A stretch of DNA of 64,000 bases from contig JAVCDE010000024.1 of the NCBI GenBank assembly GCA_030765185.1, positions 443,538 through 507,537 on the forward strand. The letters are read 5' to 3'. Under the pieces are notes generated by a model. It had not been told where the DNA came from and made no database searches. It saw nothing but the letters and a program-made list of their open reading frames with translations. A program made the translations under genes and the position numbers. Below are positions 9,065 through 63,233 of this stretch, in pieces. The DNA is from Candidatus Aceula meridiana (GTDB lineage Bacteria > Omnitrophota > Gorgyraeia > Zapsychrales > Aceulaceae). The first letter of the stretch is position 1. The number at the start of each line of letters is the position of its first letter.

Positions 9065-9068
9065 TTTA

Positions 9069-10373: not shown

Positions 10374-10377
10374 AGCG

Positions 10378-11716: not shown

Positions 11717-11751
11717 CACGTGCCTTAAGTATTTAAAAAAATATTTAAAAC

Positions 11752-12819: not shown

Positions 12820-12877
12820 TTTTTCCTTATTTTATTAATAAGACTACCACAAGACTCAGCATAACAATTTTCCAAAT

Positions 12878-13810: not shown

Positions 13811-13811
13811 G

Positions 13812-14711
13812 TTATTCAAACAAAATATCGGTTGAACAAAAGCCATCCTGCTGAAGATGGTTAGTTTTTACTTTTATGTCACATGGGCTGCAAGTCCCAT
13901 AACGAGAACAATCCCTATGCACGTACTCGATTTTTAAACTTGGGTCTAAAAGATTACCAATGGCCACTTCTTTTCTATTGGAATAAAGGTCTGCATGACA
14001 TCGGTAAACAGTCCCATCAGGTGCAATAGGCAAGACCATATTGCGACATTTAACTTTTTTTCCTGTCGCCTTGCCTATGCAAGCATCAGAATATTTATAG
14101 TGGCCATAAATTTTACCATCCCATTCGCCTAGAAATGTCTTTGTGCGAAACTCAACACCTTTTTCTTTGGCGTATTCTCTTATTTCTTCGACGAGATTGG
14201 GATAAGCCGGATGTTCAATGTGAAAAAGCCCAATACTTAAAATTTTCTGAAATTCTGCAATACGGTCAATTAGCTGTCGGTAATCATTCTGTCCATGATG
14301 ATAACTTACGCGAATTGTAGGATACGGCGCATCACGTTTATTCCAATCAAGCGTTTTTAGTGATTGGAAATGTTTTGGCGTAAGGTTTGGTGGTAAGGCT
14401 GTAAGGATATCGACCTTGTGTTGAATGTTCTCCAGAAGATCCCAAATACCTTTATATAAAAAAGGCTCTCCTCCTTGAAATGTCAGAGGAACGCCGTTAG
14501 GAAGTTTTAGCCGATTGAGCGCCGCAATCCATTGCGAAGAACCCACTTCTTCACCCTGCTTTATATTAATATATTTATTATTATAATTTGTTATACAGTA
14601 TTCGCAAGAAAGAAAACACCGATTTGTTAGGTAGACTCCAATGTAGTCTGTGTCTACAGGAAGGTCGACTTGAGGCAAAATTACGCTTGAAAGGTTCTTT
14701 TCTTCAGCCAT
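13812..14711 (-). CDS. radical SAM / SPASM-domain protein
   Basis: CFLSCEYC, FQGGEPFL. C-terminal CRNMVLPIAPDGTVYRC...CSRYGTCSPCD. Confidence 0.7.
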   Translation of the reverse strand: MAEEKNLSSVILPQVDLPVDTDYIGVYLTNRCFLSCEYCITNYNNKYINIKQGEEVGSSQWIAALNRLKLPNGVPLTFQGGEPFLYKGIWDLLENIQHKVDILTALPPNLTPKHFQSLKTLDWNKRDAPYPTIRVSYHHGQNDYRQLIDRIAEFQKILSIGLFHIEHPAYPNLVEEIREYAKEKGVEFRTKTFLGEWDGKIYGHYKYSDACIGKATGKKVKCRNMVLPIAPDGTVYRCHADLYSNRKEVAIGNLLDPSLKIEYVHRDCSRYGTCSPCDIKVKTNHLQQDGFCSTDILFE

Positions 14712-16734: not shown

Positions 16735-17549
16735 ATGAAATTTGCCGCTATTGTTAAAGACCAAATTCAAACAGACCGTTTTGTCATCCCCTATCGTATC
16801 TATGACAAAAATGGTCCTGATATTATCTGTCTTAATGGTGTGTTCAGCAGTCCATGGCTATGTGGCAGAGCTTTATCCGGCGATTTTCAGCTCACTACAG
16901 AATTGTCCTTTTTGATTTTCCGGGCCAAGGAAAAGGACGCGTCTTGTCCGGATCTTCTTCAGTATCGTTAGATGAAGAGGTTGAGATTCTTCATGAGGTT
17001 GCCAAGATTACCAAAGTCAAAGACACCTTCCTTTGCTCAGCTTCATGGGGCGGAGTCGTGGCTTTGGCGTTTGCGACAAAGTATCCTCATCTCATCAAGC
17101 GCCTTGTTTTAAGAAGCCTAGGCACAAAGCCCAATAAACGCATGGTTGAGACAATTAAATCCGGGACAAAAATCGATTCGGACAACCGTGAACAAATCGC
17201 CAAGACTTTAATTAATAGTTTTGGGGAAAATCTTCCTAGCCCAGTCAAGAGACGAATTGCCAGTCAGTTTATGGCAATGACCCCTGAACGCCTATCTGCT
17301 TTTTACGAACACGGTCTTTTGGTTATCGCTGCAAGAAATTTGCGGGACGTGGTAAATTTTAAAGAAATCCATACAGAAACGGTTTTACTAGCTGGAGAAA
17401 ACGACACTATCATCGACTTAGACGATGTCAAATATCTTGCCACTCAGCTACCTAATTGCAGCATTAAAATTATTAAAAATATCGGTCATTTTATGCATTT
17501 AGAAAGTGATGATGTTTTAGAAATTTATAACGAGGTTTTGTCACAATAA
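16735..17549 (+). pseudogene. alpha/beta-hydrolase fold protein interrupted by a -1 frameshift near 16850
   Basis: ORF 16735..16971 ends ...PDIICLNGVFSS in frame 1. ORF 16854..17549 continues MWQSFIRRFSAHYRIVLFDFPGQGKG...SASWGG...GHFMHLE in another frame. Together they form one alpha/beta hydrolase. Confidence 0.55.
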
Positions 17550-17583
17550 CAATATCTTTCTAAAAACTTATTTTTATTAAAGA

Positions 17584-17622
17584 AAAGAGCCCGTTTCTCG
17601 AGAAAGGAGAAACGGGCTCTTT
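17584..17622. terminator. bidirectional intrinsic terminator between convergent genes
   Basis: Perfect hairpin AAAGAGCCCGTTTCTC-loop-GAGAAACGGGCTCTTT flanked by A/T runs. Confidence 0.6.
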
Positions 17623-17642
17623 AAAATTTCTAAAAACTTAGA

Positions 17643-18833
17643 CTACTTCTTCAAATTCAATACACGAACCTTGACAACACCCTTAATCCCATAAAGGGCT
17701 TTGATAATCTTTTCCGTTGGCTCGCTTGAGACATCAATCACATTGCAGGCGTAATCGCCTTTGCTTTTATTAAGCATTTCTGCGATATTAATATTAGCCT
17801 TAGCCAAAATCGAAGAAAACTGTCCGATTATATTGGGAACATTTTTATTCATAATCACAAGACGAAAATCAGAGCTTTGGTCTAGCTTGCAATTTGGATA
17901 ATTAACAGAATTCTTAATTTTTCCAGTCTCAATAAAATCCCTTAATTGCTTAGCAATCATAGACGCACAATTGCCTTCGGCTTCTGCCGTCGAGGCTCCA
18001 AGATGCGGAATTGCAATAACATTATGCATGTTTAAAAGTTCATCATCCGGAAAATCTGTAACATAACGCGCAACGATGCCTTGCTCAATAGCTACTTTTA
18101 AGTCATCATTGTTAACAATTCCACCGCGTGAAAAATTCAGAATTTTTGCTCCTTTTTTCATGCGTGCAAACTTTTCCGCATCAATCATTCCGCGAGTTGC
18201 ATCGGTTAGTGGTGCATGCAAAGAAATATAATCACTATTAGCAATTAAGGCATCAATGCCTTCAGCACGCTGCACTTCTCTGGATAAACCCCAAGCCGAT
18301 TCAACAGAAATAAACGGATCATATCCAATAACTTCCATTCCTAAGTCCAATGCACTGTTAGCAACCATCACGCCAATTTTTCCAAGGCCGACAACGCCCA
18401 ATGTTTTTCCGGCAATTTCGCCTCCGGCAAAATTCTTTTTGTTTTCTTCAACTAAAGCCGGTACATCAGCGCCTTTCCCTTTTAAAGTCTGCGCGAACGC
18501 GATACCGGCGGCAATATCTCGAGACGCTAAGAGTAAACTCGCGATCGCTAATTCTTTAACAGCATTCGCATTGGCCCCAGGCGTATTAAAAACAACAACA
18601 CCTTTTTCAGAGCATTTTTCAATTGGAATGTTATTGACTCCGGCACCGGCACGACCAACGGCCAATAAAGATGCAGGAAGTTCCATATCGTGCATTTTAA
18701 AGCTACGCAAAATAATCACATCCGGCTGCGTAATTTCAGTTCCAATTTCATATTGGTCTAGCGGAAATGCCGCTAGGCCGTCTTTTGCAATTTTGTTAAG
18801 TGTTTTAATTTTATACATAATGATGGTCTCCAA
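17643..18833 (-). CDS. serA: D-3-phosphoglycerate dehydrogenase with C-terminal ACT domain
   Basis: 2-hydroxyacid dehydrogenase NAD-binding fold (GLGKIG). 396 aa with a C-terminal regulatory domain. Confidence 0.8.
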   Translation of the reverse strand: METIIMYKIKTLNKIAKDGLAAFPLDQYEIGTEITQPDVIILRSFKMHDMELPASLLAVGRAGAGVNNIPIEKCSEKGVVVFNTPGANANAVKELAIASLLLASRDIAAGIAFAQTLKGKGADVPALVEENKKNFAGGEIAGKTLGVVGLGKIGVMVANSALDLGMEVIGYDPFISVESAWGLSREVQRAEGIDALIANSDYISLHAPLTDATRGMIDAEKFARMKKGAKILNFSRGGIVNNDDLKVAIEQGIVARYVTDFPDDELLNMHNVIAIPHLGASTAEAEGNCASMIAKQLRDFIETGKIKNSVNYPNCKLDQSSDFRLVIMNKNVPNIIGQFSSILAKANINIAEMLNKSKGDYACNVIDVSSEPTEKIIKALYGIKGVVKVRVLNLKK

Positions 18834-18870
18834 TTAAAAGATTTTAAATGTTTTATCCGTTTTCTTTTTT

Positions 18871-18938
18871 AAATGAGCCCCGCCCTGGCGGGGCGAATTT
18901 ACCCCAGGAGCGCTTCTTGAGCGACGCGGGGCCTCCTT
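18871..18938 (-). repeat. copy A of a conserved structured intergenic element (serC-serA spacer)
   Basis: AAATGAG-GCCCCGCCCTGGCGGGGC (perfect hairpin)-GAATTTACCCC...GGGG. Related copies at 20037, 27719 and 31120. Confidence 0.5.
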
Positions 18939-20021
18939 TTAAATGTTTTCTTTCTCAAACTCCTGCATAAAAGCCACCAAGGCCTGAACACCCTCAAGAG
19001 GCATCGCATTATAAATGCTCGCGCGCATTCCTCCAACGGTGCGATGGCCCTTAAGAGTCTTTAACCCTTTTTCGGCAGCTTCTGCAATAAACTTTTTATC
19101 AAGCTCTTCATTGCCCGTTACAAAAGGAACATTCATCAGAGACCGGCTTAGTCTTTCAATCGGACTTTTGAAAAGCTTTGAATTGTCTAAATAATCATAA
19201 AGAATTTTAGCCTTATCTTGATTTACTTTTTGCATAACCGCTAACCCACCTTTTTCTTTAATCCATTGAAAGACCAATCCTGCAATATAAATAGAGTAAC
19301 AAGGCGGCGTATTAGCCATAGATCCATTTTTAGCTTGAACTTGATAATCCAAGAGTATCGGAATATTTTTAACGGCATTGCCGATGAGATCCTCTCTGAT
19401 AATCACAATCGTTAAGCCTGCTGGTCCAATATTTTTTTGTGCCCCTGCAAAAATCATACCAAACTTTGTAACATCAATCGGCTCAGACAAAATATTCGAA
19501 GACATATCAGCGATTAATGGCACATTGCCGGTATCCGGAATCTGTGGATAAACAGTCCCATAGATCGTATTATTGGTGACAATATAAAAATAATCTGCAT
19601 CCTTTGTAAATGTTGCCGGGTCTAACTCAGGAATGCGAGTAAATTTATCACCCTCCGAAGATGCAACAACATTAACCTCGCCGTGCTTTTTAGCCTCAGC
19701 AATGGCCTTTTTAGTCCACTGCCCGGTATGCACGTAATCTGCTTTTTTATTCTTAGTCATCAAGTTCATTGGCACAGCGGCAAACTGCATCGAGGCCCCA
19801 CCCTGTAAAAATAACACCTTATAATTCTCAGGGATTTTCATAATTGCCCTTAACGTTGCCTCAGCCTCATCAATGATGCCCTGGAACTCTTTGCCTCGAT
19901 GAGACATTTCCATAACAGACATGCCGCACCCTTTATAGTCTGTCATTTCACCGGCAGCTTTTTTTAAGACTTCTTCGGGTAATGTTGCCGGTCCTGCACT
20001 AAAATTGTATACTCGTGTCAT
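18939..20021 (-). CDS. serC: phosphoserine aminotransferase
   Basis: N-terminal NFSAGPA motif. 360 aa class V aminotransferase. Confidence 0.85.
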   Translation of the reverse strand: MTRVYNFSAGPATLPEEVLKKAAGEMTDYKGCGMSVMEMSHRGKEFQGIIDEAEATLRAIMKIPENYKVLFLQGGASMQFAAVPMNLMTKNKKADYVHTGQWTKKAIAEAKKHGEVNVVASSEGDKFTRIPELDPATFTKDADYFYIVTNNTIYGTVYPQIPDTGNVPLIADMSSNILSEPIDVTKFGMIFAGAQKNIGPAGLTIVIIREDLIGNAVKNIPILLDYQVQAKNGSMANTPPCYSIYIAGLVFQWIKEKGGLAVMQKVNQDKAKILYDYLDNSKLFKSPIERLSRSLMNVPFVTGNEELDKKFIAEAAEKGLKTLKGHRTVGGMRASIYNAMPLEGVQALVAFMQEFEKENI

Positions 20022-51916: not shown

Positions 51917-52544
51917 TTTTGATTCTTCTAATTCACTAGAATTGATATTTTAAATTATAACTCTGCGAATAAAATTATACAACTTATTATAAAAAACATG
52001 AATTATCTGAAAATTGAACCGAAATGCTTTCAAGCCTGATCAAATGGGGTTATGGAGTCCCACGACTAAAGTCGTGGTCCCTTCTAATGACCCGGCTTCA
52101 CTCCAAAGCTTCCCCCTGAACCATGTGCAAGCTTAGGTGTAGGGTTCGCTTGGGAGCTTCGCAGGGTTATCCATCCAGAAAAAGGCGAACATCCTCCGAA
52201 GCAGAAAATGCCTTATATTTTATTCACATACACCCACGGGCAATCCCGTGATTTTCTGCGAAGGATGGATAAGAACTGACTTTTTCAATGCCCAGATCAA
52301 CAAGCCCGCCCTTAATTAAAAGGCGGGCGCCATTTATACCAAACATGAAATGCCGTGGTATCAACAAAGATTTAAACCTTAAGTATTTGTGCCTGAGCAA
52401 CCAACGTCTTAAACGTTCGCCTAGATTTTACTTAACTCTCTTCTAGTCTTTCTCTATGATGTCTACATTGAACGGACAGATTGTTTTTGGCAAACTATCA
52501 TCACCTTGCGAAAATCAAAAACGTGCTTCAAGCCTTTTAATTTT
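51917..52544. other. ORF-free, highly structured intergenic block (candidate ncRNA or long leader)
   Basis: No ORF of 60 aa or more on either strand over about 630 nt. Nested stems TTATCCATCC(52166-75)/GGATGGATAA(52262-71), GCAGAAAAT/ATTTTCTGC, CACGGG/CCCGTG, GCCCGC..GCGGGC. Confidence 0.3.
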
Positions 52545-54908
52545 TTAACTCTTGTTAGATATTCTATCAAGAAGAAACTCTATGTGTTTCATATCAAAAA
52601 TTAATATTTCAAGAAAAACAAAAACAAAAACAATACTCATCACAAGACAAAACATGAAAATAAAAATATTCAAGCTTGATCTCAAGCCGTCATAAAAAAA
52701 GAAACGCACAAGACTTTTGCCCTTCCCGACATGAACTGCTTTAAAAGCCAAGTAGGCCTCATAAATATTCACCTTTTTCCCATTGACAGTCGCATGCCAT
52801 CCCGGATGAAACGCATCCGCATAAACAAGCCAAGCTCCTGCCTCATCGACGACGTTCGTTTCTATTGTTATCTCATTTGAGCTAAATTTTATTACCTTAA
52901 TGTTCTGCCTAATCTCCGAATTCGATTTGCTATTTGCCGTAGAACGCGTTCTTTCATCCACTCCTCTCAGTATGACAGTATTTTCTAAGTCATGATGTTC
53001 TTGAATTTGTTTTCTCGCGTCCTCGATCGTATCGCAAAAGGCTGCCCTGGAAACAAGCCGTAATTTTGGATGATGCCATCCTAGTATTTTACGAAAAGAA
53101 GGATTCGAGGGGTTTGAGATCTTCAGCAACCTATCGACCCTTTCAGACAAAAAATATGCTTTGCTTTGATCAACAACCATGCAACGGTCAATTTGAATAA
53201 AATTACTATCCTGTTGATACGGCCCTCCAAACCCTTCTTTGCGCCTCATCAGTTTCTGAGCTTTTTTTTGTCTTTCAAGAAACGGCTCCAGGACCCGCGC
53301 TTCCTGAAACTGGGGCTGATTAACCTCAACACTTTCTAACAATATTTGGTTGGTCCTTAAAAATTTTGGAGCATTGTGATACGCTGTCCACTGAAAAGAA
53401 AAAAGATCCAAGCAAAAAGGAATAGTCAAAGATAGGACAATAAGACCATAAATAAAACTATCTTTCTTTTCTCTGCCGATTCCTTTTTTCTTAGAAATAA
53501 AATTTGTTATTACTGCCATTATAAAAAGAAAGGAAAAGGAAAGAAAATACCTCCCTACGGTGGGAATGAACTCTCTTAAACCTTCCGGCATTAAATTCAT
53601 TGCTTTAAGCTTTTCAACCACAGGCGGATCCAGCAAGCTAATCAGTACATATCTTGATATCGAAAGAACGTCAAATACAAATACAAAAACCGCCAAAATA
53701 ATGAAAAAATATCCCAGCTTTTCTCTTGCCCTCACTTTCCAAAAATAATCCAGCCCGAAACCCGCACAAATCAAAATTAAAATTTTTATAATTCCGTAAA
53801 CAAAACCAATGTGTCGATAGAGATGCATTGCGGGAAAGAAATACACGCCTGCCGAAAAAAATCCCCCGAAAGAAAACCAAAAAACAGAAATAAGAACGCT
53901 AAGAAATGCCAAAAATAAAATATTTCTCACTTTCAGCAAAGACCAGACAAAAAAGACCAGCGGCAACAATCCTATATAAACGGTGCTGTTAAATTTTCCC
54001 GTTGAAGATAAGAACAAAGAGCCCTGAAAAAAGAAGTGCTGAATAATGTCTTTAAGCTGTGCCGGGCCGCCATAATTTAGAAATGTAAAAAGAGAAGTCG
54101 TGCCGGTGGCAAAGTCTCGCTGGGTCAAGTAGAGCGAGGTTTCATGCGATATCATCTTTCCACAAAGAATGCAAGCAACTGAGATAACGACAAAAGATAA
54201 AAATAAAAAAATATTAGAAAAAGATTTTAAAAAAAGACAGCGCCAAAAACGTTTATACTTCAGGCATAATACAACGAAAAAAACAAAAAGAAGAAAAAGC
54301 CATAATCCTACAAAATACAAAACCGTCCCCCCAACCCAGGCGCTGAGCATAACTATGCCGCTGATCCATAAGAATTCCGGACGTTCTTTCTTGAAAAACA
54401 AGACGATAAAATAAAATGCCCAGGGAAGCAGGTAATAAATATAAAAATTGAATTCTATCTGGGAAAACCAAACCGTGCTCATGGTTGCGCCCAGGCAGGT
54501 TAGAAACGCGGTGCTCCTTCGCGAATAAATCAAGCGCGAAAGCAAATACATGCCTGATAAAAATACCATCTGATTAGCTAAAATCGAAAGCTTAAAAATA
54601 AACAGAGCACTTTTTATTTTTAAGAAAAAGCCAATAAGGGCCGCGAGATACCCCATGGGCGTCACATTATGAATCTGCAGTAATGTCCCGGGAAACCCAT
54701 AGCTGTGAAAGGGCAACCACAAGGCTAGGTCTTTATTAAAGAATAATTCGCTATAAAAATAATGAAACACACCAAAAATGGTCTGCGTGTCATGCAGGGG
54801 GAAAAAATGCTTTTGGAAATACGGATAATTAAAGACCAACAAGAAGGATACAAGGATTAAAAAGTCACACTTTTTAAAATAGCGATATAATAATTTAAAA
54901 TTCCTCAA
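52545..54908 (-). CDS. YfhO-like polytopic membrane glycosyltransferase (GT-C fold), second copy
   Basis: 787 aa, more than 12 TM plus C-terminal soluble domain. Directly downstream of a GtrB-like GT2. Confidence 0.55.
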   Translation of the reverse strand: MRNFKLLYRYFKKCDFLILVSFLLVFNYPYFQKHFFPLHDTQTIFGVFHYFYSELFFNKDLALWLPFHSYGFPGTLLQIHNVTPMGYLAALIGFFLKIKSALFIFKLSILANQMVFLSGMYLLSRLIYSRRSTAFLTCLGATMSTVWFSQIEFNFYIYYLLPWAFYFIVLFFKKERPEFLWISGIVMLSAWVGGTVLYFVGLWLFLLFVFFVVLCLKYKRFWRCLFLKSFSNIFLFLSFVVISVACILCGKMISHETSLYLTQRDFATGTTSLFTFLNYGGPAQLKDIIQHFFFQGSLFLSSTGKFNSTVYIGLLPLVFFVWSLLKVRNILFLAFLSVLISVFWFSFGGFFSAGVYFFPAMHLYRHIGFVYGIIKILILICAGFGLDYFWKVRAREKLGYFFIILAVFVFVFDVLSISRYVLISLLDPPVVEKLKAMNLMPEGLREFIPTVGRYFLSFSFLFIMAVITNFISKKKGIGREKKDSFIYGLIVLSLTIPFCLDLFSFQWTAYHNAPKFLRTNQILLESVEVNQPQFQEARVLEPFLERQKKAQKLMRRKEGFGGPYQQDSNFIQIDRCMVVDQSKAYFLSERVDRLLKISNPSNPSFRKILGWHHPKLRLVSRAAFCDTIEDARKQIQEHHDLENTVILRGVDERTRSTANSKSNSEIRQNIKVIKFSSNEITIETNVVDEAGAWLVYADAFHPGWHATVNGKKVNIYEAYLAFKAVHVGKGKSLVRFFFYDGLRSSLNIFIFMFCLVMSIVFVFVFLEILIFDMKHIEFLLDRISNKS

Positions 54909-54928
54909 AAAAATTCTCCCTTAAAAAT

Positions 54929-55885
54929 CTACTTATCAAAATTTATCCTCTCTCTTTCGATCACGAGGGGTCGTTTTCTTACCTGAAAATGAATAGCGCA
55001 GATATATTCGCCCAAAATACCCAAAAAAACAAGCTGAATCCCTGAAAGGAAAAACAGTGCGACAATCAGCGTCGGAATTCCAGACGGAGCGTTTCCACCA
55101 TTAAAAAACAAAACCGTAATCAAAGAAAAGATTGCATACACAATAGATGCAAAAGAAATAAACAGCCCGGCGATGATGGCCACTCTCATAGGCAAAAAAG
55201 AAAAAGAAATGAGGTCGTTGAGGCCTTCGTCAAAAAGATGATAAAAAGTGTTTTTAGACATCCCCTTCTTCCTCTTTCTCCACTCCAGATCAACACCGAT
55301 AGATTTAAACCCACAGCTGGCAATCATTCCCCTGATGCTCGGATAATAATCATCAAATTGCTTTAAGGCCTGCAGAACTTTCTTGTCAATAAGCTGAAAG
55401 GCGTTGGCATGAAACGGAATGCTGATATATGAAAATTTACGAACGATATGGTAGTAGAAATTTCTTATCATTCTCATTATAATGTTTTCCCTGCGTACTT
55501 TTCTTACGCCAAAAACGACCTCATAACCCTCTTCCCATTTCTTTACAAATTCAATAATGGCCTCCGGGGGATCCTGCAAATCCGCGGCCAGCAAAACAAC
55601 AACGGCATCCCCCGAAGCGTTCATCAGCCCGTTAAAGGTCGATCGAAGGATTCCAAAATTCCTTGAATTAATAATTACTTTAATATTTTTGTCTTTTTGA
55701 GAAATTTCTCTGAGAGCGTTTACCGTATTATCCGTCGATCCATTATCGCAAAAAATATGCTCATATTCATATTGCGCGAGTTCCTCTTTGAATATTAACT
55801 GTACTTTTTCATAGCAATCAAAGATATTTGATTCTTCGTTAAAAACCGGAGTAATCACGCTTATAAATTTTTTTTCGCTTTCCAT
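54929..55885 (-). CDS. polyprenyl-phosphate glycosyltransferase (GtrB/ArnC-like GT2 with two C-terminal TM helices)
   Basis: ISVITPVFNEESNI and DNGSTDNT motifs. Two C-terminal TM segments. Confidence 0.8.
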   Translation of the reverse strand: MESEKKFISVITPVFNEESNIFDCYEKVQLIFKEELAQYEYEHIFCDNGSTDNTVNALREISQKDKNIKVIINSRNFGILRSTFNGLMNASGDAVVVLLAADLQDPPEAIIEFVKKWEEGYEVVFGVRKVRRENIIMRMIRNFYYHIVRKFSYISIPFHANAFQLIDKKVLQALKQFDDYYPSIRGMIASCGFKSIGVDLEWRKRKKGMSKNTFYHLFDEGLNDLISFSFLPMRVAIIAGLFISFASIVYAIFSLITVLFFNGGNAPSGIPTLIVALFFLSGIQLVFLGILGEYICAIHFQVRKRPLVIERERINFDK

Positions 55886-55905
55886 TATAGTCCCACGCTT
55901 TCTAT

Positions 55906-56820
55906 TTATTTACACATCGTTAATGCCGTCTGAACAATATTTTCATCCGAGATACCTTGTCGACGGCAAAGGTACTCCTGGCTTCCGGAAACATCAATTT
56001 CATTTTGCCTTAAATAAAGGCAAACAAATTTCAAAGGCTTTCCCGCCATTGCCAAGACTTCTGATACCACAGCAGCCAAGCCGCCTGCACCATGCTCTTC
56101 TATTGTCATAACTCTTCCCGTTGCCAAGGCCCACTTGAGTAACGACTCCTTGTCTAGAGGTGAGAGTGTGTGCATGCTCAAAACCGTGGCGCTGATGTTT
56201 TTACGTTTTAGCTCTTGCGCGGCCTTCACGGTTTTTTCCAATACGCCCCCTGTGCTAATCAACGTTATATCCGAGCCTTCGCTCAATATAAGGGCTTTGC
56301 CAATTTGAAATTCTGGCTCGTTTTCATATACTTTTAATTCCTGTGTTTTACCCAGCCTTAAATAACATGGCCCCCTCTGCCTGAGAATGTCCCGTAGCGC
56401 TAATCTGGTCTCCACGGGGTCTCCCGGAGCGATCACCGTCAAGCCGGGCAAAACGCGCATGACTGCCAAATCTTCCAGGCCGTAATGAGAATAGCCCTGG
56501 CTTCCATATGACAATCCGCCCCCGACCGAAACTATGGTAACCGGCAAGGAATGATAGCAGATATCATTTCGTATCTGCTCGAAACATCTTAAAGTCGGAA
56601 AATTGGCAATTGAATAAATAAAAACACGGTATCCTTCGTAGGCAAGGCCGGCCGCCACTCCTGCCATATTTTGTTCGGCGATTCCCGCATTTAAAAATCT
56701 TTCCGGAAACTCTTCCACAAACGGCTCAATCACGGAAAAGCCTAAGTCTCCGACGATAAGAAATATATCGGGATGAATCCGCGCCTGGGCAACAAGCTCC
56801 TGAATAAACGCCTTACGCAT
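55906..56820 (-). CDS. transketolase C-terminal-section subunit
   Basis: FLNAGIAEQNMAGVAAGLAYEGYRVF Pyr-domain plus TK C-terminal domain. 304 aa. Confidence 0.8.
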   Translation of the reverse strand: MRKAFIQELVAQARIHPDIFLIVGDLGFSVIEPFVEEFPERFLNAGIAEQNMAGVAAGLAYEGYRVFIYSIANFPTLRCFEQIRNDICYHSLPVTIVSVGGGLSYGSQGYSHYGLEDLAVMRVLPGLTVIAPGDPVETRLALRDILRQRGPCYLRLGKTQELKVYENEPEFQIGKALILSEGSDITLISTGGVLEKTVKAAQELKRKNISATVLSMHTLSPLDKESLLKWALATGRVMTIEEHGAGGLAAVVSEVLAMAGKPLKFVCLYLRQNEIDVSGSQEYLCRRQGISDENIVQTALTMCK

Positions 56821-57652
56821 GGCTTCCTTTTTTTAACTTTGCAATCGCCAGATCAAGCTGTTGGGCATTCGGCGATCTATAATGCCATTCAAGTTTGTTT
56901 TCCATAAAATCAACCCCTTTGCCTTTCACTGTATTTGCAATAAGGCAAGATGGACTACCCTTATGCCAAGGTGCCGACGAAAGGCTTTTATAAATTTGAT
57001 CATGATCATGGCCGTCAATGTCCCGAACAGACCAACGGAATGATTTTAATTTTTCCCCTAAAGGCTCTAATCCCAAAATATCTGACACCTGCCCCAGGGC
57101 CTGCATTTTATTATAATCAATCACCGCAATTAAATTATCTAAGCGATGGTGCGCCGCGAATAAAAAAGCCTCCCAATTTGACCCTTCCTCCATTTCTCCG
57201 TCGCTTAGTATGACAAAAACGCGCCAATTTTTACCTTTTCGTTTTGCCGCGAGGGCCATGCCGCAAGCAAATGGCAACCCATGACCGAGAGACCCTGTAG
57301 AAAATTCTACTCCTGGTACTTTCCTATCTGAATGAGTTAGAAAATAAGACCCGTCTTGACCGAAGCCTTCCAGCTCTTCTTCCGGAAAAAATCCTCGATA
57401 TGACAGCGCGGCATACAAAGAGGCGCAGGCATGTCCTTTGCTAAAAATAAGACGGTCTCTCGCATCCCAAAGCGGGTTTTTGGGATCAATATTTAAAACC
57501 CTCGAATACAATACGGCAAGCAAATCGGCAACCGAAAGGGCTCCACCGATGTGCGAAGATTTAGCGGCATGCACCATCTGCAAAGATTTTATTCTAATTT
57601 TTAACGCAAAGAGGTGAGAATCCAGATAATTTTCGAAGTCTCTATTTATCAT
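56813..57652 (-). CDS. transketolase N-terminal-section subunit (TPP-binding)
   Basis: GSLGHGLPFACGMALA and ILSDGEMEEGSNWEA. Confidence 0.8.
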   Translation of the reverse strand: MINRDFENYLDSHLFALKIRIKSLQMVHAAKSSHIGGALSVADLLAVLYSRVLNIDPKNPLWDARDRLIFSKGHACASLYAALSYRGFFPEEELEGFGQDGSYFLTHSDRKVPGVEFSTGSLGHGLPFACGMALAAKRKGKNWRVFVILSDGEMEEGSNWEAFLFAAHHRLDNLIAVIDYNKMQALGQVSDILGLEPLGEKLKSFRWSVRDIDGHDHDQIYKSLSSAPWHKGSPSCLIANTVKGKGVDFMENKLEWHYRSPNAQQLDLAIAKLKKGSHA

Positions 57653-58428
57653 TTTGAGTTATCCGGATTGTCAAACTCTGGATTCTTAGAAAGTTTTAAA
57701 TTAAGGTAAGTTTTTTTTCCGTTCTTTTCAAAAAAAGCAAATCCTTTTTTTCCAAAGCTACGCGCGCGTAGCAAGTTTATGATCTGAGATCCGGAATAAA
57801 GGCGGGACAAATCAACGGTATCCAAGAAATCAGCCTCCTTTTTCTTATGATAAACGGCCTTAGACTCGTCTTGGGCAACCGGTTTAATTTTTCCTGCCTT
57901 GATTAACGGCCATTTTTTTTTAAATAATTCTATGATTTCCTTGCGCAGACGATGATAAATATCATAGGCAGTATCTTCGTCTAATAAAGAAACTTCTTTT
58001 TGCGCCCAAACGGGACCGGCATCCGCCTTCTCGTTAATCTGATGAATTGTGACTCCCGTGGGTGTTCCGTCAAGAATGCTGTGGACATGCGGGTACCAGC
58101 CGCGATTGGTGGGAAGGAGCGCTAAATGAAAATTTAGAGTATTTTTTGCCAAACAGAAAAAATCAGGCTTAAGCAGATAAGACCAAAAAACCGTAATGAT
58201 AAAATCCGGAGGGTCCTGCCTCATCTCTTTAAAATGTTCCGGATCTTTTAAAATATCAACGCTGTAAATTCGGTCTTCCGGCACCTTTGCGTTGGCCTTG
58301 ATCTGGTCTGCGTATTTTTGCTCATTGGCATTGTGCAAATAAAGCTTCTCGATTGTATCGCCGCATTCTACCAAATGTTTTGCGACCTGCGCTCCCGGCC
58401 AGTCATTAGCCAATAAATAAATTTTCAT
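57649..58428 (-). CDS. sugar N-formyltransferase (Fmt/ArnA-N-terminal family)
   Basis: Formyl_trans_N fold with HxSLLPxxRG-type motif (FHLALLPTNRGWYPH). Confidence 0.7.
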   Translation of the reverse strand: MKIYLLANDWPGAQVAKHLVECGDTIEKLYLHNANEQKYADQIKANAKVPEDRIYSVDILKDPEHFKEMRQDPPDFIITVFWSYLLKPDFFCLAKNTLNFHLALLPTNRGWYPHVHSILDGTPTGVTIHQINEKADAGPVWAQKEVSLLDEDTAYDIYHRLRKEIIELFKKKWPLIKAGKIKPVAQDESKAVYHKKKEADFLDTVDLSRLYSGSQIINLLRARSFGKKGFAFFEKNGKKTYLNLKLSKNPEFDNPDNSK

Positions 58429-59528
58429 GAAACCCCCAATATTTTGCGTATAATCCCGGCGGCGTAGGAGATGTCATCCTCGCTAAGCTTAGAAGCGCAA
58501 GGAAGATTGATACCGCATGCCGCCAAATGGTCGGCAACAGGTGTTTTTACGGGCTTAAACATCGGAAGCTTACTAATACAGCGGAAAAAAGGCCGACTGC
58601 GAATTCCTTCATCATCCATCCGCTTTATGACCTCATCACGCGTAATTCCGAAATCTTTATCAAGAATTATGGTGGGAACATAATAATTATTATAGATGCC
58701 TGGCTTTTCAACGTTCATGGACATCCCTACGACGTCCCCCAATCGATCTTTATACCAAAAGAAGATCTGGCGCCGGTGATTGATGATCTCCTGGGCGCGT
58801 TCGACCTGTGCCAGCCCAAGCGCAGCCTGAATATTCGACATCTTGTACTTTAATCCGATACCTGTCACGTTCAGCATCCCCGAATTATCGCGGCAATGGT
58901 CCCAATAGTAATATGCGCGTTCGTAAAATTTCTTATCATTTGTCACAAGGACTCCGCCCTCTCCCGTTGTAAACGGCTTGGCCCCCTGAAAACTAAACGC
59001 CGCCGCAAATCCAAGTGACCCAGCTGGTTTTTCATGATAAAGCGATCCAATTCCCGGAGCAGCATCTTCGATGACTGTTACGCCGTGTTTTTCTGCAATT
59101 GCGTTGATCTCATCCATATCTGCCGGATGTCCAAACATATGCACAGGGATAACGGCTTTTGTTTTTGAAGTTATCGCAGCCTGAAAACACTGAGGGTCCA
59201 TGCACCAAGTATCTCGATGGACATCGACAAATACGGGTGTCGCCCCCAGATAGCATACGCATGAGGCCGTTGCGATCCAGGTCGTCTCCGGTATAATAAC
59301 TTCATCGCCGGGTTTTATGCCAAGAGCGGCCATGGCAATATGAAGCGCACCGGTACAGCTTGAGGTTGCGATCGCATATTTTGTATTCGTAAAGCTTGCC
59401 ATCGCAGCTTCAAACCTGTCCAGGTAATTATGCCAATTTTGATACCACCCGTTTCGACAGGCATCTGTAACATAAGCGACTTCTTTTTCCGTAATCCACG
59501 GACCGCCTGAAGGTATTTCTCTTTTCAT
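58425..59528 (-). CDS. DegT/DnrJ/EryC1/StrS-family PLP-dependent sugar aminotransferase
   Basis: SSCTGALHIAMAALGIKPGDEVI and FSFQGAKPFTTGEGG (PLP lysine). Confidence 0.85.
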   Translation of the reverse strand: MKREIPSGGPWITEKEVAYVTDACRNGWYQNWHNYLDRFEAAMASFTNTKYAIATSSCTGALHIAMAALGIKPGDEVIIPETTWIATASCVCYLGATPVFVDVHRDTWCMDPQCFQAAITSKTKAVIPVHMFGHPADMDEINAIAEKHGVTVIEDAAPGIGSLYHEKPAGSLGFAAAFSFQGAKPFTTGEGGVLVTNDKKFYERAYYYWDHCRDNSGMLNVTGIGLKYKMSNIQAALGLAQVERAQEIINHRRQIFFWYKDRLGDVVGMSMNVEKPGIYNNYYVPTIILDKDFGITRDEVIKRMDDEGIRSRPFFRCISKLPMFKPVKTPVADHLAACGINLPCASKLSEDDISYAAGIIRKILGVS

Positions 59529-59560
59529 TGATGAAGACTCTTCATGTTTTATCGTTAAAC

Positions 59561-60811
59561 TTAATCTCGATCTCTATTCCCAAGGTACTCAAGAACGGAC
59601 GTAACACGACCTCCGGAATTAACGTAAGAGGCAAGGTATTTCTTGATCTCGCCAAGATACCCGTAATTAAAAACAATAATCTCGTCAACCGGGTCTTTAA
59701 ATAAATTCTTGGGATCTGATACCAAAACCCCCGTTGCCGGCATTTCCAATCCATGCAATGCTGAATTCATATCATAAACACATTCTATTTCTTTTTTTGT
59801 CAGACCGGCAATCGCCATTGTATGGACCCCCCGGCCTGCCGCTCCGTAGCCAGCAACCCGTTTGCCCTCTGTCCGCAACTTACGGACATGCCTCAATAGC
59901 CGATTGTGGCTTTCCTTAACCATCGCGGAAAAGTCACGATACAAATCCCTTTGCCGTAGCCGCAAAAGAAAACCATTGTCTTGTGGCAGCGCAATCGGCA
60001 GCCGGTTTTTCTCAAGCACGGCAGCGACTATCAAAGAATTTCCGCGGCACATATCCTCAGGAATAAAATTAAAAGATACGGGCTTATAACCCGCATGACG
60101 CAAAACCGACAAAATTGATTCCCTGGTAAGATAGACCGAATGTTCATGTGCAAACAGGCACGCTTCGTTGCGTTGAACGATTTTTTCAAAATCATGCACT
60201 TCAATAATAATAACACCAAAAACCGGATCCAGAATTTTCGAAATATCTTTTAAAAACGCAACCGGATTCGGCACATGATCAAAAGTATACTGGCAGACCA
60301 CAACCTTTGCCTTGCTCATATTCTCCGGAATGAACTTAACCGCATCATCAGAAAAACAAGACGCAACAGTATCGATTTCGTTTTTGATCGCTTGTCGGCA
60401 GAGGCCCTGCGAAGGTTCAAATCCCAGAACCCGGGCACCCAGCTCTCTAAAATATCTTAGTTGAAGACCATCGCCCGAACCGATCTCGATAACCGTATCG
60501 CCTTTTCTTATACCAAACAGGGTGCAAGTCTCATCCGCAAATTTTTTCATAAATCTTTGAACAAACGCAGACTGTGATACAGTGTAGTCATAATTATGAT
60601 AATAATCTGAAAGATCAACATCATGGAGCGTTTGAACGACCCCGCACCGCGGACACCAGTAAATATTAAGATCGGCCAAAAATGGATCTTCTCTATTGCT
60701 CGGATCCACATGGCCGTCTGACATCGGCATATCCGGCAGTCTCAAGAATAAATATAAATTCTCAGCCCCACAGATACGACAAACATTGCGATAAGTAACG
60801 TCAAGCTTCAT
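59561..60811 (-). CDS. NDP-hexose C-methyltransferase (TylCIII/EryBIII-like) with N-terminal zinc ribbon
   Basis: CRICG...CPRCG zinc ribbon. SAM motif IEIGSGDG. C-terminal C-methyltransferase-type domain. Confidence 0.65.
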   Translation of the reverse strand: MKLDVTYRNVCRICGAENLYLFLRLPDMPMSDGHVDPSNREDPFLADLNIYWCPRCGVVQTLHDVDLSDYYHNYDYTVSQSAFVQRFMKKFADETCTLFGIRKGDTVIEIGSGDGLQLRYFRELGARVLGFEPSQGLCRQAIKNEIDTVASCFSDDAVKFIPENMSKAKVVVCQYTFDHVPNPVAFLKDISKILDPVFGVIIIEVHDFEKIVQRNEACLFAHEHSVYLTRESILSVLRHAGYKPVSFNFIPEDMCRGNSLIVAAVLEKNRLPIALPQDNGFLLRLRQRDLYRDFSAMVKESHNRLLRHVRKLRTEGKRVAGYGAAGRGVHTMAIAGLTKKEIECVYDMNSALHGLEMPATGVLVSDPKNLFKDPVDEIIVFNYGYLGEIKKYLASYVNSGGRVTSVLEYLGNRDRD

Positions 60812-60834
60812 GATTTATTTGTACTGGCGAAAGC

Positions 60835-61929
60835 CTATTTTTTTCCCGCAGATAACATCCGCAAATATTCTTCTAATTGCCCCAGGCACAACTGGTAAGG
60901 ATCTGTTTGCTCATACGCCTTATACCACTCAACAGTTCTTTTGATTGCTTCTTTAACGCCCCAGACGGGAGCCCAATCTAAAAATGATCTAGCCTTTGTA
61001 ATATCAAGGCTAAGCATCATAGCCTCATAGGGCCTGTTTCTTTCCCGAACCTCTTTCCATGAACCTTTCCCCCATTCTGCGATAACCATATCGGCAATTT
61101 CGCCAACCTTTTTTATGCAACGGCTGTCGGGACCAAAATTCCAAGCTCCGCAAAACTTTTCAGCATCATCTTGCATACGCGATGCCAGCAACAAATACCC
61201 AAAAAGGGAATCCAACACATGCTGCCAGGGGCGTGTTGCCATCGGAGTTCTAATTTCAATGGCTTTCCCACTCTCCAGCGCCTTTATACAATCAGGAATA
61301 ATCCTGTCCTTTTGCCAATCACCACCTCCGATAACATTACCCGCTCTTACGGATGATAAACTTTTTCCGTGTTTTTTAAAATCGCGGGGGTTAAAGAAAG
61401 ATGCTCGATAGGACTCAGTAATCAGCTCGGAGCAGGCCTTGCTTGAACTATAGGGATCATATCCGCCTAAAGGGTCGCTCTCGAGATAACTACGCGCTGA
61501 TTCATTTTTTTTATAACATTTGTCGCTGGTAACATTAATAATTGTCCCAACCGACTTTGTCAACCTGCAGCATTCGAGCACGTTGATCGTGCCTCCGACA
61601 TTGATATCGTAGGTTTCTTTCGGGCTTACATATGACTCGCGTACGATGGGTTGGGCCGCAAGATGAAAAACAATCTGGGGATTATATTTTTCAAAAACGC
61701 CTTTTAGGCGGTGATAATCTCTGACATCGCCGATGATATGAACAACTTTGTCTTTAAGCCCTGTTACCACAAAATTATCTCGGGCGGTATAAGGCTCAAG
61801 CGCGTATCCTACGATATCGCAGCCTAATACTTTTAGCCAGAGAGAAAGCCAAGAACCCTTGAATCCGGTATGGCCTGTGATTAAAACAACTTTTCCTTTG
61901 TAAAATTCTTCCAAATTAAACGGCATCAT
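60835..61929 (-). CDS. rfbG: CDP-glucose 4,6-dehydratase
   Basis: ITGHTGFKGSWLSLWL is the RfbG hallmark. Start chosen at MMPFNLEEFYKGK with a GGAAAG RBS; the longer ORF reaches 61977. Confidence 0.8.
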   Translation of the reverse strand: MMPFNLEEFYKGKVVLITGHTGFKGSWLSLWLKVLGCDIVGYALEPYTARDNFVVTGLKDKVVHIIGDVRDYHRLKGVFEKYNPQIVFHLAAQPIVRESYVSPKETYDINVGGTINVLECCRLTKSVGTIINVTSDKCYKKNESARSYLESDPLGGYDPYSSSKACSELITESYRASFFNPRDFKKHGKSLSSVRAGNVIGGGDWQKDRIIPDCIKALESGKAIEIRTPMATRPWQHVLDSLFGYLLLASRMQDDAEKFCGAWNFGPDSRCIKKVGEIADMVIAEWGKGSWKEVRERNRPYEAMMLSLDITKARSFLDWAPVWGVKEAIKRTVEWYKAYEQTDPYQLCLGQLEEYLRMLSAGKK

Positions 61930-62704
61930 CTTTCCATACTTTCCAAAAACTTTTATTCTCATCCCATAGCTTATCAAGTTGTATTTTATCTCTTAAGGTA
62001 TCCATGCACTGCCAAAACCCATCATGCTTATAAGCATATAGCTCGCCGTCTTCTGCCATCTTCTTTAAAGGCCCGAGCTCAAAAACTACGTCATCATTTT
62101 GAGGAATGTAGTCAAAAACCTTTGGTTCGCAGATCATAAAACCCGCGTTGATCCATCCGCTTTCTTTTTTCGGTTTTTCCAAAAACTGAAGCACCCTTTG
62201 ATCGCTGGATAAATCCAATTTACCAAACCGGCTATCAAGCTGAACGGCGGTAGTCGTTACGGCCTTCTTGTGACTCTTGTGAAAATTTAATACTTTTGAA
62301 ATATCGATATCGGACACGCCGTCTCCATACGTCAGCATAAATGCCTCGCCCTGGGTATACTCTTTTATTCGTCTTATTCTGCCGCCGGTCATGGCCTCCA
62401 GGCCCGTGTCGATGAGCGTAACTTTCCAGGGCTCGCTTGTATTATTATGGACTTTTATTTGATTATTCGAAAGATCAATCGTAATGTTGCTTTGATACAA
62501 GAAATAATTTGCGAAATATTCTTTAATGATAGAGCCTTTGTATCCCAGGCAGATAATAAAGTCATTGTATCCATAAAAAGAATACATCTTCATGATATGC
62601 CACAAAATCGGCTTTCCCCCAATAGTTACCATAGGCTTAGGAATTTTTTCCGTCTCCTCGCAAATTCTTGTTCCCATCCCGCCGGCTAAAATAACAACTT
62701 TCAT
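61916..62704 (-). CDS. rfbF: glucose-1-phosphate cytidylyltransferase
   Basis: MKVVILAGGMGTRICEETEKIPKPMVTIGGKPILWHIMKMY. Start at internal MKVV with an AAGGAGG RBS. Confidence 0.85.
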   Translation of the reverse strand: MKVVILAGGMGTRICEETEKIPKPMVTIGGKPILWHIMKMYSFYGYNDFIICLGYKGSIIKEYFANYFLYQSNITIDLSNNQIKVHNNTSEPWKVTLIDTGLEAMTGGRIRRIKEYTQGEAFMLTYGDGVSDIDISKVLNFHKSHKKAVTTTAVQLDSRFGKLDLSSDQRVLQFLEKPKKESGWINAGFMICEPKVFDYIPQNDDVVFELGPLKKMAEDGELYAYKHDGFWQCMDTLRDKIQLDKLWDENKSFWKVWKDDAV

Positions 62705-63233
62705 TCTATTTTCCTCCTTAACAAATGTCATTCATTTTACCCTACATTTAAGAATTCGGCAAGACTCAAAATTAAGGCGTGGCAAAAGAATACCAAATTT
62801 GTGCCAACTATTGTATATTAAACAAAAACCCCGCAACTTTTTAGTCACGGGGAGTCTGTAATTCACAGCTTATTACTTCGTAGAAAATAAATTACTTCTT
62901 AACTTTCTTGGCTTTCTTGGCTTTCTTTTTGTTTGCGATTTTATCTCCCATTTTCACATCCCCCCTTCGGTTACCCTAAATAATTAACAATAAAATATTA
63001 TAACATCTTTCTCTCATTCTCAGAGACTTTTTCAATGTGCCAGATAAATGAAAACATGACTTACGGAGCAAAGCGCTCGTAAGTCATTTGTCTGAATTTA
63101 TCCGGCGTATGCTGGATAAATCTACGTTGACCTTTCGAATCCTTGGCGAAGGGTTTGCGCTAACCATCAATCAACAATATTTTTGTTAGCACAGCGTTAG
63201 CACGAAAAATCGCAACATCTCTTCTTGCTTTTT

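Follow-up and report, generated by a model that had tools for sequence, protein, structure and literature searches.

Two types of thiamine diphosphate (ThDP)-dependent enzymes, namely those of the YerE type (decarboxylase superfamily) and those of the E1 type (alpha-KADH2), are established catalysts of branch formation on keto sugars (PMC12247030; PMC9306805), and the acyl branches installed by ThDP enzymes are further modified by reductases, transaminases or oxygenases, as reviewed in PMC9306805. Split transketolases (TKs), made up of two separately encoded subunits, have been put forward for hydroxyacetyl transfer onto keto sugars in the pathways that make miharamycin and amipurimycin, and for branching also in 13 Streptomyces sequences, none of these enzymes having been characterized in vitro (PMC12247030). 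In a 2026 paper, an exopolysaccharide cluster of Actinoplanes was reported with the gene order methyltransferase, TK N-subunit (TK-N), TK C-subunit (TK-C), DegT, GT2, DegT, without an assigned function (PMC13390465). Here we analyze nine genes in a 64,000-nucleotide (nt) stretch of DNA from Candidatus Aceula meridiana (Omnitrophota), referred to as the window, in which a split TK is embedded in a CDP-deoxysugar cluster. The cluster is a variation on ThDP-dependent sugar branching, on Arn/Gtr-type lipid-linked delivery and on CDP-deoxysugar tailoring. Our overall view, to which we give about an even chance, is that the nine genes form a single operon that makes a bespoke CDP-activated branched amino sugar and delivers it beyond the cytoplasmic membrane.

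An earlier reading, made from the bare sequence (the sequence-only reading), had described nine contiguous minus-strand genes for a CDP-hexose pathway feeding a GT2/YfhO transfer pair. All nine open reading frames (ORFs) are present at 52545-62704, the gene assignments all hold in Pfam and NCBIfam domain searches, and the interpretation as such is supported. The genes form a tight series, in 5' to 3' order RfbF, RfbG, C-methyltransferase (CMT), DegT aminotransferase, formyltransferase (FT), TK-N, TK-C, GT2 and YfhO (Table 1). Spacing between neighbors ranges from -14 to +32 nt, with overlaps in the pairs DegT/FT, FT/TK-N (4 nt) and TK-N/TK-C, and with a gap of 20 nt between GT2 and YfhO. Terminator-like hairpins at 62852-62829 and 52328-52304, together with a promoter-like site at 62762-62734, bracket the series as one transcription unit. 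The probable start of rfbF is the ATG at 62704, preceded at 8 nt by an AAGGAGG ribosome-binding site, while the longest ORF begins at 62731; RfbG likely starts at Met17 of its longest ORF (ATG at 61929).

Table 1. Genes and transcription signals of the nine-gene cluster, with positions in the window.
Feature	Position	Strand	Basis
Terminator-like hairpin, ending the upstream unit (5' operon boundary)	62829..62852	-	10-bp stem, 6 GC pairs, then T run
Promoter-like site 5' of rfbF	62734..62762	-	TTGCCG-17-TAAAAT, consensus match only
RfbF/DdhA, glucose-1-phosphate cytidylyltransferase (makes CDP-glucose)	61916..62704	-	TIGR02623
RfbG/DdhB, CDP-glucose 4,6-dehydratase (makes CDP-4-keto-6-deoxyglucose)	60835..61929	-	TIGR02622
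NDP-hexose C-methyltransferase, TylC3/TcaB9/MtmC/KijD1 family	59561..60811	-	Three-domain architecture
DegT-family pyridoxal phosphate (PLP) aminotransferase	58425..59528	-	PF01041, 359 bits
Sugar N-formyltransferase (N10-formyl-tetrahydrofolate dependent)	57649..58428	-	Formyl_trans_N + N_formyltrans_C
Split transketolase, ThDP-binding N-subunit (TK-N)	56813..57652	-	Transketolase_N
Split transketolase, pyrimidine-binding/C-terminal subunit (TK-C)	55906..56820	-	Transket_pyr + Transketolase_C
GtrB/ArnC-type polyprenyl-phosphate glycosyltransferase (GT2)	54929..55885	-	Full-length match to GtrB, ArnC
YfhO-family GT-C membrane glycosyltransferase, 787 aa	52545..54908	-	PF09586
Terminator-like hairpin, operon 3' end after yfhO	52304..52328	-	Strong; 10-bp stem, 7 GC pairs

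The TK pair has its closest solved relative in the split TK of Carboxydothermus hydrogenoformans (6yak/6yaj; 257 and 198 bits for the two subunits), with which it shares the two-gene architecture, the ThDP motif, the activating Glu and four N-subunit His. In TK-N, His34, His74, His107 and His257 are invariant in the family, as are Asp151 and Asn181 of the Mg/ThDP motif, and TK-C keeps Arg2, Ser29, the ThDP-activating Glu49 and His112. The acceptor side of the pocket is different, since the His, the Glu-Asp and the Arg of the canonical C. hydrogenoformans enzyme are replaced in TK-C by Gly100 (for the phosphate-binding His), Ser107-Gln108 and Lys158, respectively. These substitutions run through the family: the equivalent of human H416 is Gly in all of 79 relatives, the Asp of the GEDG motif is Leu, Gln, Met or Ala in the same 79, with Glu-Asp never kept, and the equivalent of human R474 is Lys in 67 of them. 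In canonical TKs, H416 and R474 (human numbering) bind the sugar phosphate, the Asp (D424 in human, D477 in yeast) binds the C2 hydroxyl of the acceptor, so that its position contacts the carbon beside the acceptor carbonyl, and the four His of the N-subunit line the active site. The pair belongs to a distinct and widespread subfamily, physically linked to NDP-4-keto-sugar genes, with canonical donor and cofactor residues and a remodelled acceptor and phosphate pocket.

The gene neighborhoods of this subfamily were collected by scanning one genome per GTDB species with a TK-N alignment, which gave at least 591 relatives, from which 80 loci were kept; their ORFs were searched with the window proteins, and linkage to rfb genes was counted within 10 kb. 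RfbF and RfbG were both found near the TK in 45 of the 80 loci. When only the 50 loci flanked by 6 kb or more on each side are considered, 34 had both genes and 38 had at least one, so the placement of the TK inside a deoxysugar pathway, as proposed in the sequence-only reading, is borne out in related genomes of many phyla. TK-C follows directly after TK-N in virtually all of the 80 loci. Hosts belong to Verrucomicrobia, Proteobacteria, Bacteroidota, Planctomycetes, Cyanobacteria, Chloroflexi and Acidobacteria, and the cultured ones include Aquitalea, Paucibacter, Sphingomonas, Mucilaginibacter, Limnohabitans, Polynucleobacter, Pandoraea and Paramagnetospirillum. The most common layout is RfbF-RfbG-RfbH (3-dehydrase)-SDR (short-chain dehydrogenase/reductase)-TKN-TKC. 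The cassette of the window is also conserved in metagenome loci, with synteny of the whole cassette in L001 (YfhO-RfbF-RfbG-CMT-DegT-FT-TKN-TKC-GT2) and L098 and, with the TK deleted, in L089. The cassette is thus a recurrent system and not unique to the Aceula window. Other arrangements include L003, where SDRs, a sulfotransferase and a kinase enclose the TK pair, with a GT2 and a membrane protein coming next. The idea that TK-N is invariably preceded, immediately upstream, by an SDR or a DegT gene had to be dropped, as O-methyltransferases (TylF, FkbM), Bac_transf and E2 acyltransferases occur there too.

The same data bear on the simplest alternative, i.e. that the pair is an ordinary pentose-phosphate transketolase that ended up in the operon by chance. 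The closest solved relative is after all a bona fide split transketolase, and a protein search returned thousands of TK-N homologues at 61-68% identity. On the other hand, linkage to rfbF and rfbG is seen in most of the related loci and across phyla, every relative compared lacks both the His that binds phosphate and the acceptor Asp, and the pair has been deleted in L089. Proteobacteria among the hosts would be expected to have a full-length tktA besides. Neighborhood and active-site residues together largely refute the housekeeping alternative, which we regard as extremely improbable.

Upstream of the TK, the identity of the starting sugar is clear. RfbF and RfbG exceed the cutoffs of their NCBIfam equivalog models, with 386.8 bits against 300.25 (residues 10-266) and 459.3 bits against 278.45, respectively, and this equivalog-level match has the pathway begin with CDP-glucose and CDP-4-keto-6-deoxyglucose. 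The third gene had been called a TylCIII-like C-methyltransferase, an assignment that withstood closer inspection. Its three domains, i.e. the zinc-binding Methyltransf_13 (PF08421), Methyltransf_23 (PF13489) and the C-terminal Methyltransf_14 (PF08484), all score over cutoff, and residues 9-402 align end-to-end with MtmC (4rv9) at 158 bits. TcaB9 and KijD1, which like MtmC are solved sugar 3-C-methyltransferases, match at about 100-105 bits. The four cysteines of the zinc site (C11, C14, C53 and C56) coincide with those of MtmC in the alignment, the S-adenosylmethionine (SAM) motif is present, and the Glu223-His224 pair is kept, corresponding to the catalytic pair that we take to be E224/H225 in TcaB9. 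Sequence comparison hence makes the protein a true member of the sugar 3-C-methyltransferase family, and the methylated carbon is most likely C3, the neighbor of the 4-ketone. A generic class I methyltransferase is ruled out by the three domains and the end-to-end match. In comparison with TylC3, TcaB9, MtmC and KijD1, with which it shares full-length homology, zinc site, SAM motif and Glu-His pair, the window enzyme differs in its presumed CDP-sugar substrate, those enzymes using dTDP-sugars, and in the replacement of the Tyr of the YHEH motif of MtmC by Ala221 (AHEH). A CDP-linked 3-C-methyl sugar is known in the form of vinelose of Azotobacter.

A connection between the sugar and the TK pocket is indicated by a covariation. 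Gln or Met occupies the position of the acceptor Asp in seven out of eight loci with a strong C-methyltransferase, but in none of the 33 loci with an RfbH 3-dehydrase, 30 of which have Leu (Fisher p = 3.6e-7, kinship of loci being ignored). In a neighbor-joining tree, the loci with Gln or Met and a CMT occur at no fewer than five separate places among Leu-type neighbors, and Gln is also present in each of three additional loci to which DegT had led independently. Since the Asp position contacts the carbon beside the acceptor carbonyl, and this carbon is C3 in a 4-keto sugar, such covariation is what would be expected if the CDP-4-keto sugar is the TK acceptor.

The DegT aminotransferase retains its catalytic PLP lysine (Lys184, in SFQGAK184PFTTGEGG), and its closest solved structures are 7b0m, GDP-perosamine synthase and ArnB. 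A role as a 3-dehydrase of the RfbH/ColD type was considered and rejected, as the protein has Lys instead of the dehydrase His and scores far under the cutoff of the RfbH NCBIfam model. It is the best-conserved protein of the cassette, with 78% identity in L001 and 82% in L089, as compared to 68-70% for the TK, and has many relatives at 53-82% identity. When such relatives were sampled on long contigs (53-74% identity), all five adjoined a TK pair, either directly or with only the FT in between. L094 and L095 have a GT-C gene (PMT_2 or GT87), GT2, a CMT-like gene, a methyltransferase, DegT-TKN-TKC and adh_short, L096 has RfbF-RfbG-TylF-CMT-GNAT-DegT-TKN-TKC, L098 has RfbF-RfbG-CMT-DegT-FT-TKN-TKC-GT2 followed by a protein with seven transmembrane (TM) helices, i.e. 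the same order as in the window, and L099 has RfbF-RfbG-DegT-FT with a convergent TK pair. The N-acyltransferase thus varies, being an FT in the window, L098 and L099 and a GNAT protein in L096 and in certain DegT fusions, and these contexts point to a conserved unit of DegT, an N-acyltransferase (FT or GNAT) and TK.

The fusions concern DegT relatives of 550-630 aa with an N-terminal extension, which are found in L016, L019, L024, L033, L059, L083 and L085 and which, in several RfbH-type loci, are located upstream of TK-N, either adjacent to it or one gene away. In five proteins (P0183, P0256, P0262, P0266 and P0269), the extension is a GNAT acetyltransferase domain. GNAT-DegT fusion probably explains most of the DegT genes of 550-620 aa upstream of TK-N, and such proteins beside a TK would be bifunctional N-acetyltransferase/aminotransferases. 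The long DegT protein of L059, the sole such fusion from the genome loci scanned, has an extension without a Pfam (GNAT) match.

The formyltransferase of the window combines a PF00551 domain (68 bits) with the sugar-specific dimerization domain N_formyltrans_C (PF18216, 32 bits) and keeps the Asn99-His101-Asp136 triad. Its relatives comprise PseJ, the F-domain of LgrA, VioF (77 bits), WbtJ (72 bits), Rv3404c and the N-domain of ArnA. A metagenome scan with the FT as sole query gave one close locus.

Downstream of the TK, the GT2 matches GtrB of Synechocystis (5EKE) at 186 bits over residues 8-309 and ArnC at 113 bits, also over its full length. PgfS and ArnC are its best NCBIfam models, and it has two C-terminal TM helices (235-253 and 273-291). 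The last gene matches PF09586 with 35 bits (cutoff 28.5) in its C-terminal 80 residues only. The public NCBI annotation is a 536-aa 'YfhO family protein', covering 68% of the ORF, but to judge from the length of the relatives (737-803 aa) and from a confident model of the full length, the real yfhO gene is the ORF of 787 aa, with a TTG start. In the protein, about ten TM segments at the N-terminus precede a soluble domain (about 510-745) and one last TM helix, and 32 homologues were detectable, most of them with PF09586. A sequence search of the PDB gave no match. However, in a Foldseek comparison of its AlphaFold model (26-sequence alignment; pLDDT 85, pTM 0.88) with the PDB, the top 14 matches were all GT-C enzymes (OST/STT3, ArnT, PglB, AftD, EmbC and ALG12), and according to this model, the last gene of the operon has a GT-C fold. 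An H-D-T motif (residues 39-41) after TM1, which may hold the acidic catalytic residue of the first extracytoplasmic loop, is the majority consensus among the relatives, at less than 90% conservation.

Two known types of delivery resemble this arrangement. In the Arn pathway, ArnB, the formyltransferase domain of ArnA, ArnC and ArnT are mirrored by DegT, FT, GT2 and GT-C, homologues of all four being encoded in the window; there, ArnC loads an N-formyl amino sugar onto undecaprenyl phosphate and ArnT transfers the sugar on the outer side of the membrane. The differences are that the Arn pathway employs UDP-Ara4N, the deformylase ArnD, the flippase ArnE/F and ArnT, whereas the window has a CDP-hexose-derived sugar and a YfhO-family GT-C, with no deacetylase or deformylase domain found in the operon or its neighbors and no ArnE/F found in the operon. 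The window in addition has the steps of the C-methyltransferase and the TK. The three-component glycosylation systems (GtrA/GtrB/GtrC, CsbB/GtcA/YfhO and PgfS), in turn, likewise have a GtrB-type GT2 that ends in two TM helices, with a large GT-C after it, but use UDP-Glc or UDP-GlcNAc as donor together with GtrA/GtcA, whereas the window has a bespoke CDP-sugar, no GtrA/GtcA-like gene that we could find, and a diderm host, with Mla, AcrB and OEP genes present. The three-component logic invoked in the sequence-only reading stands as far as the full-length GtrB/ArnC match of the GT2 and the exclusively GT-C fold matches of YfhO are concerned; the flippase component was not found, nor is the nearest YfhO relative placed beside a GT2.

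Delivery by this pair has to be weighed against three difficulties: the fold matches of YfhO have modest E-values (2e-3 to 8e-2) and low TM-scores (0.27-0.46), no GtrA-like flippase was detected near the cluster in the window (70-220-aa ORFs with at least three TM helices were sought), and the nearest YfhO relative (57% identity) is found beside neither a GT2 nor any sugar gene, so that the pairing of GT2 and YfhO in the window rests on operon adjacency. Other YfhO relatives occur in unrelated sugar clusters, and the genes after the GT2 of L001 are those for an SDR, a radical SAM protein and another YfhO paralogue. These contexts of YfhO and GT2 would agree with an alternative in which GT2 and YfhO are not a dedicated pair, the CDP-sugar being used by a glycosyltransferase elsewhere or YfhO taking a different lipid-linked donor. 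We nevertheless hold it to be unlikely, as the two genes are separated by the mentioned 20 nt only and share strand and terminator, and as other TK loci have comparable sets. A GtrB-like GT2 with at least 200 bits was identified in 14 of the 80 genome loci as well as in L001, L089, L094, L095 and L098. It comes directly after the TK pair in L001, L003, L042, L056 and L098, and after a TK remnant in L089. A large polytopic protein, i.e. YfhO, PMT_2, GT87 or an unclassified one, stands beside the GT2 in many loci; the GT-C partner itself varies, with YfhO in the window, PMT_2 in L094 and GT87 in L095. In TK loci, the GT2 is often flanked by a GtrA-sized protein with 3-4 TM helices and a polytopic protein of 500-700 aa, and GtrA-sized ORFs with 3-4 TM helices are present in six TK loci other than that of the window. 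In our reading, the sugar is probably attached to the cell surface.

From these components, the following pathway can be proposed. The C-methyltransferase would methylate CDP-4-keto-6-deoxyglucose next to the 4-ketone, most likely at C3. The TK would then take a dihydroxyethyl (glycolaldehyde) unit off a ketose phosphate or hydroxypyruvate and add it to the C4 ketone, giving a tertiary alcohol bearing a hydroxyacetyl branch, whose new side-chain ketone would be aminated by DegT and whose amine would be N-formylated by the FT. Afterwards, the GT2 would shift the sugar from CDP to polyprenyl phosphate, following the logic of ArnC with N-formylated Ara4N, a flippase would turn the lipid-linked sugar over, and YfhO would pass it to an acceptor in the envelope. 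The order of TK before DegT is the economical one, because the sugar offers one C4 ketone, which the TK and a ring-C4 aminotransferase would each require; with the TK acting first, DegT would work on the branch. The TK probably adds a two-carbon branch to the sugar; the chemistry of this step, like the position of the amino group, is inferred.

A close known counterpart is the yersiniose A pathway (DdhA-D with YerE/YerF, and the relatives ErwE, MMAR_2332 and MygE). There too, a CDP-4-keto-6-deoxyhexose or CDP-4-keto-3,6-dideoxyhexose is made by RfbF/RfbG(/RfbH), a ThDP enzyme attacks C4 and the branch ketone is subsequently processed, as is proposed for the window, and the yersiniose genes ddhABC-yerF-yerE are a gene-for-gene analogue of the most common TK layout. 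YerE is, however, a single-chain flavoenzyme of the decarboxylase/acetolactate-synthase type that uses pyruvate, whereas the window enzyme is of the two-subunit transketolase type without the TPP_enzyme_N/M/C architecture. The unit transferred by YerE is acetyl and the branch is reduced; in the window, the unit would be hydroxyacetyl and the branch would be aminated and formylated. The analogy to YerE and AviB1/AviB2 drawn in the sequence-only reading is accordingly a functional one, the enzyme itself belonging to the TK superfamily and to neither the YerE nor the E1 type. The miharamycin and amipurimycin enzymes are split TKs as well and are likewise assigned from their gene context beside keto-sugar-forming enzymes. 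They belong to actinomycete secondary metabolism and a nucleoside-type higher sugar, whereas the family described here is found in surface-glycan clusters of many phyla, mostly Gram-negative ones, with CDP-hexose genes.

Several findings speak against parts of the proposed pathway. Use of a keto sugar as acceptor has yet to be demonstrated for any TK (PMC12247030), and the sequence of the C-methyltransferase does not separate C3 from C5 methylation. The covariation of the pocket residue has exceptions in L069 and L098, where a C-methyltransferase is present together with Leu. The nearest solved relatives of DegT (perosamine synthase and ArnB) act on ring C4, and the solved FT relatives VioF, WbtJ, Rv3404c and PseJ act on ring C4 amines. 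Lastly, the TK pair of L089 is internally deleted, while RfbF, RfbG, CMT, DegT, FT and GT2 are all intact, so that the other steps of the pathway may not depend on the TK. The deletion, of about 1.3 kb (L089 6944-7454), joins TK-N residues 8-140 to the final 29 residues of TK-C.

The relatives of DegT and FT and the deletion in L089 make amination at ring C4 a serious rival. In this alternative, DegT would aminate C4 of the C-methylated CDP-4-keto-6-deoxyhexose and the FT would yield 4-formamido-4,6-dideoxy-3-C-methylhexose, delivered by GT2 and YfhO, with the TK making a second branched sugar from a separate share of the 4-keto sugar or being an accessory. The nearest sugar formyltransferases, which use 4-amino-4,6-dideoxy sugars, have the N_formyltrans_C domain too, and the ArnB/ArnA/ArnC logic works without a TK. 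Yet in this model the TK, translationally coupled to the FT through their overlap, is left without a role, and no use is made of the adjacency of DegT and TK seen in each of the sampled DegT relatives. It would have the TK and a C4 aminotransferase vie for one ketone, and the covariation of the TK pocket residue with the C3-tailoring gene suggests that the TK sees this very sugar. Nor is L089 very informative functionally, since the TK remnant, which is 70% identical and free of stop codons, indicates that the deletion is probably recent (identities to the window are 82% for DegT, 72% for FT and 70% for GT2). Homology thus points to ring C4 as the aminated position and gene coupling to the TK points to the side-chain ketone, and while we favor the latter, ring amination is a less likely but still plausible option. 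The ring model amounts to taking the CDP-6-deoxy-C-methyl-formamido sugar of the sequence-only reading literally; if the TK uses the C4 ketone, the formamido group would probably be on the side chain and the name may change.

Another option is that the TK-like pair performs a different ThDP chemistry, such as phosphoketolase-like formation of acyl-ThDP for N- or O-acylation, or cleavage between C3 and C4 of the 4-keto sugar as donor. The heavily remodelled acceptor pocket would allow for this, and in L072, L081 and L082, a lipoyl-domain E2 acyltransferase and an E1-beta-like gene precede the TK pair, replacing the sugar genes, which suggests a subgroup with oxidative acyl-transfer chemistry. 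Against it stand the invariance of the four N-subunit His, which fits ordinary glycolaldehyde transfer, and the dedicated N-acyl transferases (FT or GNAT) already encoded next to the TK, and we think it very unlikely.

When branch formation by the TK, followed by amination of the branch, is extended from the window to the whole family, it becomes a tentative proposal, with somewhat less than an even chance. The cross-phylum TK family, with its at least 591 matches among GTDB species representatives, would use NDP-4-keto-6-deoxy sugars as acceptors and attach a hydroxyacetyl branch to them, for amination by a dedicated clade of DegT proteins and acylation by an FT or GNAT protein. The products would be 4-C-(1-acylamido-2-hydroxyethyl) sugars, as yet undescribed in glycans, that in Omnitrophota would be displayed through polyprenyl phosphate and YfhO.

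In a literature search of incomplete coverage, we came across neither a TK family linked to CDP-hexose genes, nor its pocket signature, nor a glycan with the predicted sugar. The search gave nothing relevant on transketolase together with YfhO, an O-antigen cluster or CDP-glucose, on a dihydroxyethyl-branched dideoxyhexose, or on a CDP-sugar N-formyltransferase together with a C-methyltransferase. The TK branching route has previously been a proposal only, made for the two Streptomyces nucleoside antibiotics and the 13 Streptomyces sequences. New here are the regular association of the CDP-hexose pathway with a TK subfamily whose acceptor pocket is remodelled, seen across many phyla in surface-glycan clusters, and a specific pocket residue that follows the C3 substituent of the sugar, which amounts to a testable specificity hypothesis. 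The question whether transketolases take ketones or keto sugars as acceptors hereby becomes directly testable, with defined genes, substrates and mutants. Furthermore, an undescribed family of branched amino sugars is predicted, a first view is gained of a possible envelope decoration in an uncultivated Omnitrophota bacterium, and transketolases that form tertiary alcohols would be of interest in biocatalysis.

Certain TK loci deviate from the CDP-hexose pattern. In a sub-clade from Acidobacteria, Chloroflexi and others (L039, L044, L047, L062, L064, L065, L067 and L077), TKN-TKC is followed by a more distant DegT, with no RfbF or RfbG within 10 kb, and some of these loci have a PglF/CapD-like dehydratase of about 650 aa. 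The Actinoplanes wps-2 cluster (PMC13390465) was grouped with the same sub-clade. The pairing of TK and DegT may thus also run on UDP-4-keto sugars. In L095, a YerE-like single-chain ThDP enzyme (604 aa, TPP_enzyme_N/M/C; 16943-19104) adjoins an HpcH/HpaI aldolase, which is the ErwE/ErwI arrangement for long-branch sugars, and together with the DegT-TKN-TKC cassette this places two different ThDP branching systems on the same contig.

The window itself contains another split TK, at 10378-11794, in agreement with the sequence-only reading, which had called the one in the operon a second pair. It belongs to a second glycan cluster (6145-14711, minus strand) that ends in a similar module and encodes a radical SAM protein, a GT9-like protein, a radical SAM/SPASM protein, TK-N (312 aa), TK-C, another radical SAM/SPASM protein, a GT2, a YfhO and a TPR protein. 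This TK-C has only 162 aa, i.e. the pyrimidine domain without Transketolase_C, with Gly and Leu at the two pocket positions, the GT2 (234 aa) has no TM helices and the YfhO has 747 aa. Identity to the operon paralogues is 37-40% for the TK and 28%, in the C-terminus only, for YfhO. A similar second TK pair is found in L094, beside a B12-radical SAM gene.

Finally, two features flank the operon. Between yfhO and the gene for a PAS histidine kinase there is a non-coding stretch of 630 nt (51917-52544); no Rfam families were identified in the window, this stretch included, and it holds several GC-rich hairpins, e.g. 52328-52304, 52250-52235 and 52212-52188. A lysine-rich ORF of 19 codons, MGDKIANKKKAKKAKKVKK, with a G-rich ribosome-binding site lies upstream of the promoter of the operon (62892-62951, minus strand) and is followed by the strong hairpin at 62852-62829.

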